The notes below the pieces were generated by a model. It had not been told where the DNA came from. It ran no database searches and saw only the letters and a program-made list of their open reading frames with translations. DNA of 64,000 nt, taken from assembly GCA_900547225.1 (NCBI GenBank), contig URFW01000001.1:128456-192455 (forward strand). Reading direction: 5' to 3'. Below, piece after piece: positions 30,398 to 33,142 of this stretch. Source of the stretch: an uncultured Mycoplasmatota bacterium (GTDB lineage Bacteria; Bacillota_I; Bacilli_A; RF39; UBA660). The translations under genes and the position numbers were made by a program. Each line of letters begins with the position of its first letter. Within the stretch, counting starts at the first letter, position 1.

Positions 30398-30426
30398 TTG
30401 ACAACCGTACGTAATTATTGTAATAT
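30398..30426 (+). promoter_or_regulatory. Sigma-A-type promoter (TTGACA, 17 nt, TAATAT)
   Basis: Perfect -35 hexamer at 30398-30403, 17-nt spacer, -10 TAATAT at 30421-30426, directly after the yebC stop. Confidence 0.6.
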
Positions 30427-30432
30427 AAGTAT

Positions 30433-30648
30433 ATATTTAAATTGATGATGAAGATTAGTAGTTAGTTTTATTTATTTTATAGAGAGTTACCATTTGGTGG
30501 AAGGTAATAAATAATTGCTAATGAATCTACTTCTAAGACGAATGAGCTAAAATTCATTCGCGGGTAAAACCGTTATGTAAATTAAGAATAAGCTTGGATG
30601 GCACCGTGGTTAACATCACTCCAACGTTAGGGCTTATTCTTTTTATTT
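30433..30648 (+). promoter_or_regulatory. Candidate T-box riboswitch leader (Ser; specifier GAA-UCU-A at 30523-30529) with terminator
   Basis: Leader of about 215 nt. AGAGAG element at 30479-84. GAA UCU A at 30523-29. T-box-like 18-mer agcttggATGGCACCgtgg (30591-30609) matches the UGGNACC bulge consensus. Terminator arms aagaataagc (30584-93) and gcttattctt (30632-41) plus T-run. serS is the last gene of the downstream operon. Confidence 0.45.
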
Positions 30649-30663
30649 ATAGGAGATATTTCA

Positions 30664-31133
30664 TGGATGAAAGAATAATATTAAATACGGATGGCAAAAT
30701 AGATTTAACGATACCAAAAGATTTTGAAGAATATGATAATACGATTGATATTTATTTGCATGGAACGGATGAACTTGTTGGAATGATATGGTTTGAAGAT
30801 TTTTCGGATGATGAGTTTACTAAGTATTATGGTAATGTTGGTTATGTGATTAAAGAAAAGTTTAGAAGAAAAGGTTATGCATTTTCAGCGCTTAAACTAT
30901 TAAAAAAAGTCTTGCTTGATAATGATATTGATAAAATGATATTTAGTATATTTCCAAATAATATTGCTTCTTGTAAAACGGTGGAAAAATTAGGTGCCAG
31001 AATACTTTGCTATAGAAACGTACCTAAGAATCATTCTTTGTATAATTTTTCCGAAAATCAAGTAGTAATATATGAATATAACATTGAAAGGAATAGTAAA
31101 TATGAGGAAGATAAAACTAAAAAGCATTTATAG
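30664..31133 (+). CDS. GNAT-family acetyltransferase
   Basis: Start at MDERIIL after RBS aggag. [20 protein letters not shown] matches the GNAT motif A region. About 156 aa. Confidence 0.6.
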
Positions 31134-31341
31134 ACATTTTAAGGGTAACTTATATTTGGTAGAAGATTTAGCAGTTCACTCGGAAACAGGGGAAATACTT
31201 GTAATATATAGACACTTGTATGATGATTGTGCTTGTTTTGCAAGACCACTTGATATGTTTTTATCAGAAGTTGACCATGAAAAGTATCCTGATGTAAAAC
31301 AAAAATATAGGTTTGAAGAGGTTATAATACCTAAAAAATAA
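31102..31341 (+). CDS. DUF1653-family small protein
   Basis: [11 protein letters not shown] motif. Overlaps the GNAT 3' end by 32 nt. Confidence 0.5.
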
Positions 31342-31352
31342 AAGGAGGACAT

Positions 31353-31853
31353 ATGTTAAAAGAATACTTAACAGAAGAAAAGTATGAAGAATTAAAAGAA
31401 AGTAATGATATGATTTATAAGGCTTTAGAATTATCATTAGAGTTATTTAAAAGCGACACTGATAAAGGCGGATTTCCTTACGTTCTTCATCTATTTTACG
31501 TATATAAAAACGTTTTAGAAAAAGAAGAAAAGGTAGTAGCACTACTTCACGATGTTATTGAAGATAAAAACGTAACTAAAGAAGATTTATTAGAAATTGG
31601 TTTTCCAAGCAAAATAGTAAGTGATATATTAGTACTAACTAGAAGAAAAGACGTAAGTTATGATGCTTATATAGATAACATAATAAAAACCGGTAGTAAA
31701 GAGGCTTTAGAAGTAAAACTAGCAGATTTAAAAAATAACATAGATTTAACTAGGATAAAAAATCCTTCCGTAAAAGATTATGAAAGAGTAGAAAAAAGGT
31801 ATATGCCTTCTTATGAAAAAATACTAAATAGATTAAAGGAGATAGAAAAATGA
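31353..31853 (+). CDS. HD-domain protein of RelA/SpoT-hydrolase type (small alarmone hydrolase-like)
   Basis: HLFYVYKNV...VALLHDVIEDKNVTKEDLLEIGFPSKIVSDILVLTRR aligns with the RSH HD motif H..V...LLHDxxEDT...FG..V..LV.GVTK. 166 aa. 4-nt overlap with serS. Confidence 0.6.
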   Translation: MLKEYLTEEKYEELKESNDMIYKALELSLELFKSDTDKGGFPYVLHLFYVYKNVLEKEEKVVALLHDVIEDKNVTKEDLLEIGFPSKIVSDILVLTRRKDVSYDAYIDNIIKTGSKEALEVKLADLKNNIDLTRIKNPSVKDYERVEKRYMPSYEKILNRLKEIEK

Positions 31854-33142
31854 TAGATATTAAATTAATAAGAGAAAACAAAGAATTAGTAAAAGAAAAT
31901 ATTAAAAAGAAGTTTCAAGATAAGAAATTACCACTTGTTGATGAAGTTTATGATATGGACATAAAGTATCGTAAGATAAAAACAGAAGCTGATGAAAAAA
32001 GAAGTAAGATTAACTCTTTAAGTAAAGAAATAGGAAATCTTATGCGCAATAAAGATATAGATGGTGCAAACAAAATAAAAAATGAAGTTGCATCTATTAA
32101 AGAATCTATTCCGGAAATTGAAAAAGAAGAGGAAATGCTTGAAAAAGAAATAAAAGAAAGAATGATGGTAATACCAAACATAATAGCAAACGACGTTCCA
32201 ATTGGAGAAGATGACTCTAAAAACGTTGAAGAAGGAAGATTTGGAGAACCTAAAGTGCCTTCTTATGAAATTCCATATCATTCAGATATAATGGCTTCAT
32301 TTAACGGATTAGATAAGGATGCTGCTGCAAGAGTATCTGGTAATGGTTTTTACTATTTAATGGGAGATATTGCACGTCTTCATTCAGCTGTATTAGCATA
32401 CGCAAGAGACTTTATGATAGATAAGGGATTTACATACTGCATTCCACCATATATGATTCATTCTGATGCGGTTGATGGAGTTATGTCGTTTGAAGAAAAA
32501 GAAGCTATGATGTATAAAATAGAAGGTGAAGATTTATACTTAATAGGTACGTCAGAACACTCTATGATAGCTAAGTTTAAAGATCAATTATTAACGGAAG
32601 ATATGCTTCCTATTACAATGACATCATATTCTCCTTGCTTTAGAAAAGAAGTTGGAGCACACGGAATAGAAGAACGTGGAGTATATAGAATTCACCAGTT
32701 TGAAAAGCAAGAAATGGTAGTAGTATGTAAACCAGAAGATAGTGAGTCTTGGTATAACAAGATGTGGAATTATTCTGTTGAATTATTTAGAAGCCTTGAT
32801 ATTCCAGTTAGAAAACTTGTTTGCTGTTCTGGAGATTTAGCAGACCTTAAATATAGATCTTGCGATATAGAAGCTTGGAGTCCTAGACAACAAAAATACT
32901 TTGAGGTATGTTCATGTTCTAATCTTACTGATGCACAAGCAAGAAGACTTGGTATACGTTATAAAAAGTCTGATGGAACAAAAGAGTTTGCACATACTTT
33001 AAACAATACCGTTATCGCTCCTCCTAGAATGTTAATTGCATTTTTAGAAAACAATTTACAAGAAGATGGAAGTGTTCTTATACCAGAAAAATTAAGACCT
33101 TATATGGGTGGTAAGGATAAACTTATTCCGGCAAATAAATAA
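31850..33142 (+). CDS. serS: Seryl-tRNA synthetase
   Basis: 430 aa. N-terminal coiled-coil arm, class II motifs (FRKEVGAHGIEERGVYRIHQFEKQE, motif 3 region). Confidence 0.9.
   Translation: MIDIKLIRENKELVKENIKKKFQDKKLPLVDEVYDMDIKYRKIKTEADEKRSKINSLSKEIGNLMRNKDIDGANKIKNEVASIKESIPEIEKEEEMLEKEIKERMMVIPNIIANDVPIGEDDSKNVEEGRFGEPKVPSYEIPYHSDIMASFNGLDKDAAARVSGNGFYYLMGDIARLHSAVLAYARDFMIDKGFTYCIPPYMIHSDAVDGVMSFEEKEAMMYKIEGEDLYLIGTSEHSMIAKFKDQLLTEDMLPITMTSYSPCFRKEVGAHGIEERGVYRIHQFEKQEMVVVCKPEDSESWYNKMWNYSVELFRSLDIPVRKLVCCSGDLADLKYRSCDIEAWSPRQQKYFEVCSCSNLTDAQARRLGIRYKKSDGTKEFAHTLNNTVIAPPRMLIAFLENNLQEDGSVLIPEKLRPYMGGKDKLIPANK

Follow-up and report, generated by a model that had tools for sequence, protein, structure and literature searches.

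At positions 30398-33142 of the forward (+) strand of a 64,000-nucleotide (nt) stretch of contig URFW01000001.1, from an uncultured Mycoplasmatota bacterium (the whole stretch is called the window below), an RNA leader is followed by four genes, the last of which is serS, the gene of seryl-tRNA synthetase (SerRS). The locus raises the question of whether this leader is a serine-responsive T-box and, given that its terminator surrounds its antiterminator, how such a leader could switch. On the analyses described below, window 30436-30650 is very probably a serine-specific, transcription-attenuating T-box riboswitch of a compact class that has no Stem III and that has its terminator nested around the antiterminator; this estimate covers both identity and architecture, and the way of switching is proposed tentatively.

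Identity and specificity of the leader

The RF00230 (T-box) covariance model of Rfam matched window 30436-30626 (+) with 97.5 bits against a gathering score of 93 (E 3.4e-20), and the leader was aligned end to end (model positions 1-219). This was the sole Rfam match in the window other than tRNAs. An earlier note, made from the letters of the sequence, had proposed a T-box from three hallmarks, AGAGAG, GAA-UCU-A and UGGCACC; all of them were found at the claimed positions when the coordinates were recomputed, and the RF00230 scan that the note had named as a check was positive, with Stem I and the specifier architecture complete. The score lies 4.5 bits above the RF00230 threshold; two relatives matched by the custom model described below (L003 and L005; relatives are given by locus number) scored below this threshold when scanned with Rfam, as did the control L047 (78.4 bits). 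The leader belongs to the T-box family according to its score and to most of the defining features. Its elements are as follows.

30436..30626, + strand: T-box leader, Stem I through antiterminator (RF00230)
30442..30538, + strand: Stem I (Rfam alignment; helices 1-5 covary in 38 T-boxes)
30443-30448, + strand: K-turn strand UGAUGA, within Stem I
30481-30486, + strand: AG bulge AGAGAG, within Stem I
30494-30502, + strand: distal loop UUGGUGGAA, within Stem I
30526..30528, + strand: specifier UCU (Ser), in the context GAA-UCU-A (30523-30529)
30539..30560, + strand: hairpin at the Stem II position, CGAAUGA-GCUAAAAU-UCAUUCG (Rfam alignment; helix 6 covaries)
30561..30575, + strand: Stem IIA hairpin CGG-GUAAAA-CCG, with the F-box CCGUUA at 30570-30575 (high posterior probability in the Rfam alignment)
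30576..30593, + strand: linker UGUAAAUUAAGAAUAAGC, 18 nt, single-stranded, replacing Stem III, with the purine flanks AAGAA and AA kept
30594..30624, + strand: antiterminator, helix A1 being formed by UUGGA (30594-30598) and UCCAA (30620-30624) (helices 8 and 9 covary)
30599-30605, + strand: T-box bulge UGGCACC, 7 nt, in agcuuggAUGGCACCgugg (sequence and Rfam alignment)
30606-30619, + strand: helix A2 hairpin GUGGU-UAAC-AUCAC (Rfam alignment)
30584..30641, + strand: terminator hairpin enclosing the antiterminator (folds, duplex energies and covariation)
30642..30650, + strand: U-tract UUUAUUUAU, directly 3' of the terminator stem
30651-30655, + strand: Shine-Dalgarno (SD) sequence AGGAG, ahead of the ATG of the first gene (GNAT) at 30663

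Relatives were obtained by a SerRS search, which gave 80 loci, nearly all of them from metagenome-assembled genomes (MAGs) of uncultured bacteria labelled Bacilli, Tenericutes, Acholeplasmatales, Candidatus Onthoplasma etc. Since RF00230 at its gathering threshold, which is high for the family, detected only five T-boxes in 19 close loci, a custom covariance model was built from six related leaders. With this model a T-box was found in 37 of the 80 loci, which together with the window makes 38, and 37 of these lie upstream of serS. No T-box was detected by Rfam in 16 more distant serS loci, and no second one was found in the 64-kb window by the custom model or by Rfam.

In the alignment of the 38 T-boxes, 96% of the cells were paired and compensatory changes were present in 33 of the 37 pairs, as compared with 42-50% paired in slid controls of the same alignment, which is fitted to the model and biased towards structure, the margin over the slid controls being large. 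The helices of Stem I were 93-99.6% paired, with compensatory changes; in the window leader, posterior probabilities were high where the K-turn, AG bulge, distal loop and specifier loop were placed on the RF00230 consensus. The Stem IIA hairpin and CCGUUA were invariant in six relatives. For a IIB pseudoknot no convincing pairing was seen in the leader by eye, no tool having been applied to it.

The aligned specifier was UCU in all 37 serS-linked T-boxes (that of the window included), and the comparison with related serS leaders thereby upholds the Ser assignment that the earlier note had drawn from UCU. The variable base of the bulge, which is C in the window, is either C or U in the relatives. 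Either base could pair with G73, the discriminator of bacterial tRNA-Ser. Among the Ser specifiers in TBDB, UCU ranks second in frequency (16%; PMC7778990). A Ser T-box ahead of serS is in itself ordinary.

Absence of Stem III and alteration of Stem II

A Stem III hairpin with the flanks 5'-RRRxG and AA-3' is a hallmark of T-boxes (PMC7583486), and it is regarded as indispensable and as present in every T-box (PMC7583486, PMC9177973, PMC11404447). In the Rfam alignment, the 19 model positions of this hairpin are represented by 1 nt in the window leader. Only 18 nt lie between the F-box and helix A1, and 23 nt between the F-box CCGUUA and the bulge, while the purines normally flanking Stem III are kept in the linker (UUAAGAA...AA). 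The same spacer between F-box and bulge measured 21-26 nt and had no stable fold (free energy of at least -1.2 kcal/mol) in 32 of the 32 measurable T-boxes. In the canonical controls L069 and L047, the Stem III positions are filled by a hairpin with the flanks GAGUG and AA.

The control L069 (positions 2826-3020, from a Bacillales MAG) is a canonical T-box, with Stem III and a terminator made from the 3' strand, and is located downstream of serS. Its specifier reads UUC (Phe); a reading as UCA (Ser) was considered and rejected.

The hairpin at the Stem II position (30539-30560) has no consensus GAA...AGUA S-turn; the Rfam alignment shows a deletion at these positions. In its place, the window leader and its relatives have an A-rich loop (GCUAAAAU, AUAAAAA or UAAAAG), the adenines of which might replace the string of five purines that supports the codon-anticodon duplex.

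Terminator nested around the antiterminator

In the canonical switch, the terminator takes its 5' strand from the 3' strands of A1 and A2 (PMC7583486). In the window leader these strands do not pair downstream in a structure exclusive with the antiterminator; a stem and a U-tract are present all the same. The outer part of this stem is formed by AAGAAUAAGC(UU) at 30584-30595 and (GG)GCUUAUUCUU at 30630-30641, which flank the antiterminator on both sides. Its 5' strand AAGAAUAAGC is the purine-string linker 5' of A1 (the last 10 nt of the linker, 30584-30593), and its 3' strand lies 3' of A1'. The stem is mostly linker and extends into UU-G-GAUG of A1 and the bulge, and above the outer stem a weak helix GAUG/CGUU is followed by the A2 hairpin on top. 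The predicted energy of 30584-30641 was -19.6 kcal/mol when folded as the terminator and -5.5 kcal/mol for the antiterminator alone.

The nested stem is the only one adjoining the U-tract in the window, and all relatives inspected have a U-run after the equivalent stem. The duplex of the linker with its own 3' tail had a mean energy of -10.2 kcal/mol, as compared with -3.4 +/- 1.9 kcal/mol for the tails of other sequence groups. Over 18 distinct stems, in an equal-length alignment (A5) that was anchored at the conserved AAG and built from predicted partners, a construction biased towards pairing and not towards covariation, 91% of the cells were paired and five of the eight pairs showed compensatory changes. 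The number of cells changed on both sides was 25, against 9.0 +/- 2.1 in shuffles (0 of 500 reached 25), and the covariation score was 0.52, against at most 0.14 when the strands were slid. A MAFFT alignment of the 3' domains had placed the terminator 3' strands out of register and was replaced by the duplex energies and A5. The start of the nested stem is fixed at the conserved AAG, 14-16 nt ahead of the bulge. Judged from these comparisons of sequences, the nested stem is no chance match, and the remark in the earlier note that the topology of antiterminator and terminator was not fully canonical describes a real feature, conserved in the relatives according to the folds and the covariation of the nested stem.

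Distribution and designs of the compact class

Metagenome contigs were scanned with the pattern CCGTTAT-N16-23-GGATGGNACCG, which selects for a short distance between F-box and bulge, giving at least 120 stretches, of which 80 loci were listed. By the custom model, 67 of the 80 listed loci were T-boxes. Among their specifiers were Ser (UCU and UCA), Thr (ACU), Ala (GCU), Pro (CCU), Leu (CUC and CUU) and Tyr (UAC), and one listed leader, read by eye, is probably Trp (UGG). The downstream gene fits the specifier in five loci (ProRS after CCU, TyrRS after UAC, and isopropylmalate synthase, LeuA, after CUC), the first downstream open reading frame (ORF) having been judged by eye on its first 50 residues and without a family search. 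The compact class is, to judge from its leaders, lineage-wide and not specific to serS, because it recurs with many specifiers.

Three designs of the terminator were distinguished. The automatic terminator classifier and specifier read-out made off-by-one and U-run errors (loops ending in AC were read as CUA), and the counts below are therefore approximate and were checked by eye; those for the metagenomic leaders hold among the matches listed.

Nested design, as in the window: 12 of the 38 T-boxes of the serS search (by eye); about 11-13 of the 67 metagenomic leaders
Type B, in which the A1 5' strand and bulge (AAGGAUGGUAC) pair with a downstream GUACCAUUCUU (or GUACCAUCCUU): 18 of the 38 (by eye); about 34-37 of the 67
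Canonical design, in which the 3' strands of A1 and A2 pair downstream: about 7 of the 38 (by eye; e.g. L007, L015 and L028); about 11-18 of the 67

Type B is the commonest design in both sets. Examples are L025 (3900-3975), L016, L019, L023/L024, L038, L095 and L102, with a U-run after the downstream strand. The ACCA of that strand mimics the 3' end of tRNA and would be expected, from its sequence, to compete directly with tRNA for UGGU. The window leader is a hybrid of the nested and type B designs.

In 20 of the 37 serS-linked leaders, serS is separated from the leader by one to three small genes, and even close relatives differ in the set. DUF1653 genes occupy this slot in at least 13 loci, genes of HD-domain hydrolases resembling Aph1 in at least eight and GNAT genes in at least five, as a double GNAT in L001 (2222-3136); the other slot genes encode a NUDIX hydrolase (L046, 3541-3999) and an M19 dipeptidase (L020, 1861-2790, and L051, 3073-3996). 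In several of the metagenome contigs L087-L166 a small gene was likewise observed between the leader and the expected target, for example a P-loop kinase-like ORF of about 180-190 amino acids in L151, L118 and L159 and a cytidylate-kinase-like ORF in L164. Insertion of small genes beside the leader looks like a habit of the lineage.

Tandem serS paralogues were observed downstream of the Ser T-box region in L029 (4001-5170 and 5386-6657) and L045 (4001-5233 and 5389-6588). The second serS product of each shares only 68-69% identity with the SerRS of the window and may serve as a spare or an inhibitor-resistant enzyme.

Proposed switching and alternative explanations

In known T-boxes, the purines flanking Stem III latch onto the duplex of tRNA-NCCA and bulge, and this engagement is sensitive to aminoacylation and takes place only with uncharged tRNA (PMC7583486). 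Because these latch purines are the terminator 5' strand in the compact class, we tentatively propose, as a model, that uncharged tRNA would switch the leader by keeping the purine-string linker away from the terminator strand. The anticodon of uncharged tRNA-Ser would be recognised at the UCU specifier of Stem I and its 3' end (G73-C-C-A) by the UGGC of the antiterminator bulge. Held at both places, the tRNA would force the short linker to stay single-stranded; the linker would be either docked in the minor groove, acting as a purine latch, or stretched from the Stem II/IIA region to A1. The AAG... strand of the linker would then not be free for the emerging ...CUU strand, and read-through by RNA polymerase would follow. 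If the tRNA were charged or absent, the linker would be free, the 10-12-base-pair (bp) stem would zip up next to the U-tract and transcription would stop. The narrow range of linker lengths fits such a ruler-like role of the linker.

Several points weigh against a nested terminator that switches in this way. The antiterminator and the outer 10-bp stem can coexist, at a predicted -14.8 kcal/mol, and the minimum-energy hairpin encloses the complete A1, bulge and A2 in L001, L013, L035 and L060. Because the terminator stem can hold a complete antiterminator, secondary structure alone gives, in these predicted folds, no mutual exclusion of the ON and OFF states, and exclusion would rest on tertiary contacts. 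The compatibility of the two structures is the main point that competition for the linker leaves unexplained. Furthermore, an antiterminator without Stem III showed no appreciable tRNA binding (PMC7583486), no tRNA-Ser gene was found in the window or in 60 loci, and the covariation of the nested stem was counted in the anchored alignment A5.

The same compatibility would be expected if the outer helix were a relocated Stem III that aids tRNA binding in the ON state, with regulation exerted elsewhere, for example through sequestration of the SD sequence by the CUCC of A1' or through RNA stability. The outer helix does lie at the place of Stem III and stacks directly on A1, and CUCC (30619-30622) can pair with the GGAG of the SD sequence. 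We consider this reading unlikely nonetheless, since a U-run always stands directly 3' of the helix, which is the signature of an intrinsic terminator, and since sister T-boxes have the U-run at the same place after terminators of other topologies; the helix would also use up the AAG purines that are single-stranded for latching in the known structures (PMC7583486), and CUCC:GGAG is a pairing of only 4 bp that is generic to T-boxes. As a translational layer in its own right, the SD-sequestering helix CUCC:GGAG was rejected on the same two grounds. Still less probable is an ordinary T-box with the canonical switch, in which the 3' strands of A1 and A2 would form the terminator and the nested stem would be a folding artefact. 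Such a topology does exist in the compact relatives counted above as canonical; in the window, however, nothing downstream complements AUCACUCCAA beyond the 4 bp of CUCC:GGAG with the SD sequence, and the sole stem beside the U-tract is the nested one, which covaries. We therefore give this possibility very little weight.

A decayed T-box, in which the leader had become a constitutive attenuator or a leaky terminator and serS depended for its expression on read-through or on an internal promoter, would agree with the absence of Stem III and of the Stem II S-turn, with the Rfam score of only 4.5 bits over the threshold and with the promoter-like hexamers within the operon. Decay is, however, at odds with the strict conservation of the specifier, AG bulge, distal loop, F-box and bulge across the serS leaders, with the abundance of compensatory changes and with the recurrence of the compact design under other specifiers, ahead of a fitting downstream gene in five loci (by eye); moreover, the promoter-like matches are not above chance. 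It is accordingly regarded as very unlikely, and a serine T-box with a nested terminator remains the preferred reading of the leader.

Probable promoter and genes of the operon

The promoter, the genes and the closing terminator of the operon are listed below.

30398..30426, + strand: Sigma-70/SigA-type promoter, with -35 TTGACA (30398-30403), a 17-nt spacer and -10 TAATAT (30421-30426)
30663..31133, + strand: GNAT of the RimJ/RimL-like Acetyltransf_3 type, first gene (PF13302, E 3.6e-11, 44.4 bits against a gathering score of 25.4)
31102..31341, + strand: DUF1653 protein of 79 amino acids (PF07866, E 2.8e-24, 85.7 bits against a gathering score of 23.5), with the ribosome-binding site (RBS) AAGGA
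31353..31853, + strand: small HD-domain hydrolase, Aph1 homologue (PDB 7SMG, '(p)ppApp hydrolase', E 6.7e-23, over 139 residues), with the RBS AAGGAGG
31850..33142, + strand: serS, seryl-tRNA synthetase of 430 amino acids (TIGR00414, 412 bits against a cutoff of 301.65; PF02403 and PF00587)
33143..33168, + strand: weak intrinsic terminator closing the operon, AAAAGGA-UUAAU-UCCUUUU followed by UUUAUUU (read from the sequence)

The earlier note had described the promoter as a consensus sigma-A promoter. It is found where the note placed it and its -35 hexamer is perfect, but it falls short of a full consensus, with the -10 hexamer matching at 4/6 and a total score of 10/12. A generic scan returned 19 promoter-like sites against 25.4 +/- 4.6 in shuffles, which is no better than chance in AT-rich DNA. 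The site at 30398-30426 is accepted as the likely promoter of the leader because its position is repeated in L001, L002, L029 and L060, where TTGACA (TTGACG in L060) precedes the T-box and is separated by 17 nt from a -10-like hexamer. Transcription would accordingly be inferred to start at about 30433.

The family matches and the spacing of the genes agree with the four tightly packed or overlapping genes that the earlier note had read behind the leader: GNAT and DUF1653 overlap by 32 nt, DUF1653 and the HD gene are separated by 11 nt, and the HD gene and serS overlap by 4 nt (ATGA). Given these overlaps, the 11-nt gap and the terminator after serS, the GNAT, DUF1653, HD and serS genes are taken, from their arrangement, to form one transcription unit behind the leader. 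The hairpin after serS (33143-33168) is AU-rich and lies below the stringency of the standard terminator scan, by which no internal terminator was found within the operon; the promoter-like hexamers inside the operon belong to the matches that are not above chance. The note had also considered that serS might have a promoter and a T-box of its own. The window holds one T-box in its 64 kb, and, since the HD stop codon and the ATG of serS overlap, there is no room for a separate serS leader.

For DUF1653, the start at 31102 was preferred over that at 31072, as the alignments with homologues begin at residue 1. An ORF beginning at TTG 30594 was rejected as the start of GNAT, since it runs through the terminator and has no RBS; the true start is ATG 30663. 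The literature search on DUF1653 returned nothing relevant.

The protein of 31353-31853 had no Pfam match. The earlier note had called it an alarmone-hydrolase-like HD protein, and this can now be made more specific, the closest solved structure being the (p)ppApp hydrolase Aph1 (7SMG). The motif LLHDVIED is kept, and the D of TDKGG and the R of DLTRI align to positions 24 and 119 of the 7SMG chain, respectively. D24 and R119 confer ppApp specificity in Aph1 (PMC10083569), the comparison assuming that the chain index equals the numbering of that paper. By its sequence, the protein is an Aph1-type (p)ppApp hydrolase homologue, and its activity is a prediction.

Among the neighbouring features of the window, two small ORFs of 102 and 71 amino acids (33770-34078 and 34236-34451) were observed just after a YunG-like phage-type gene (33224-33691, PF24591). 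They have the C-terminal motif V/L-M-D/E-DEYVGITFDNL in common and look like a local duplication. The tRNA genes observed in the window are those of tRNA-Leu(CAA) (4269-4355, -) and tRNA-Met(CAU) (7862-7938, -).

Significance and comparison with known systems

T-boxes are textbook RNA sensors of tRNA charging and are antibiotic targets. In current models the switch is an exchange of the antiterminator 3' strand, from which the compact class departs, and the class raises the questions of what minimum of RNA is needed for reading aminoacylation and of whether a purine latch or linker alone can drive a switch. Search tools that look for Stem III or for a canonical terminator in T-boxes will mis-annotate such leaders, and compact T-boxes offer small parts for engineering. 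The DUF1653, Aph1-like, GNAT, NUDIX and dipeptidase genes that recur under Ser T-box control provide leads on DUF1653 and on the physiological role of (p)ppApp hydrolases.

In the literature searched, no relevant description was found of T-boxes without Stem III or of T-boxes in Mollicutes/RF39, the 2008 comparative survey and TBDB being outside the scope of the search. The leader is probably a structural variant, in its expression platform, of a known riboswitch family, and a variant not described before. With moderate confidence, the expression platform and its abundance in uncultured low-GC metagenomic bacteria appear to be undescribed in the searchable literature. A wider reading, which we hold to be possible rather than probable, is that these leaders make up an undescribed, abundant class of T-boxes in which the Stem III hairpin is dispensed with and the terminator is built from the 5' side of the discriminator (purine-latch linker, A1 5' strand or bulge). 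In the nested form, the ON and OFF states would not be exclusive and would be decided by a tertiary contact or by linker tension rather than by strand exchange, and tRNA-Ser charging would possibly be coupled to (p)ppApp turnover via the Aph1-like hydrolase.

Aph1 (7SMG) and the window protein share an alignment of 139 residues, the HD motif and the residues equivalent to D24 and R119. Aph1 is a phage-encoded immunity protein located beside a toxin (PMC10083569), whereas its homologue in the window stands in a Ser T-box operon together with serS.

With the canonical T-box of the B. subtilis tyrS type (RF00230), the window leader shares Stem I with its K-turn, AG bulge, distal loop and specifier loop, the F-box CCGUUA, the A1/A2 antiterminator with its UGGNACC bulge, the intrinsic terminator with its U-tract, and an aminoacyl-tRNA synthetase as the target. 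It differs from that type in having an 18-nt linker with flanking purines in place of Stem III, in having no S-turn, in the position of the terminator 5' strand upstream of the antiterminator, and in the three unrelated small genes between the leader and the synthetase gene. Precedents for a lineage-specific loss or shortening of domains with tRNA sensing kept are the glyQS-type T-boxes, which have no Stem II or IIA/B, and the actinobacterial translational ileS T-boxes; both keep Stem III in the discriminator (PMC7583486, PMC11404447), whereas the window leader keeps the Stem II/IIA positions and has lost Stem III. A sister design in the lineage of the window leader is type B (e.g. L025 and L095), which is likewise compact, has no Stem III and takes its terminator 5' strand from the 5' side of the antiterminator. 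In type B, the A1 5' strand and bulge (AAGGAUGGUAC) pair with an ACCA copy in competition with tRNA, whereas the stem of the window leader only grazes A1 and the bulge.

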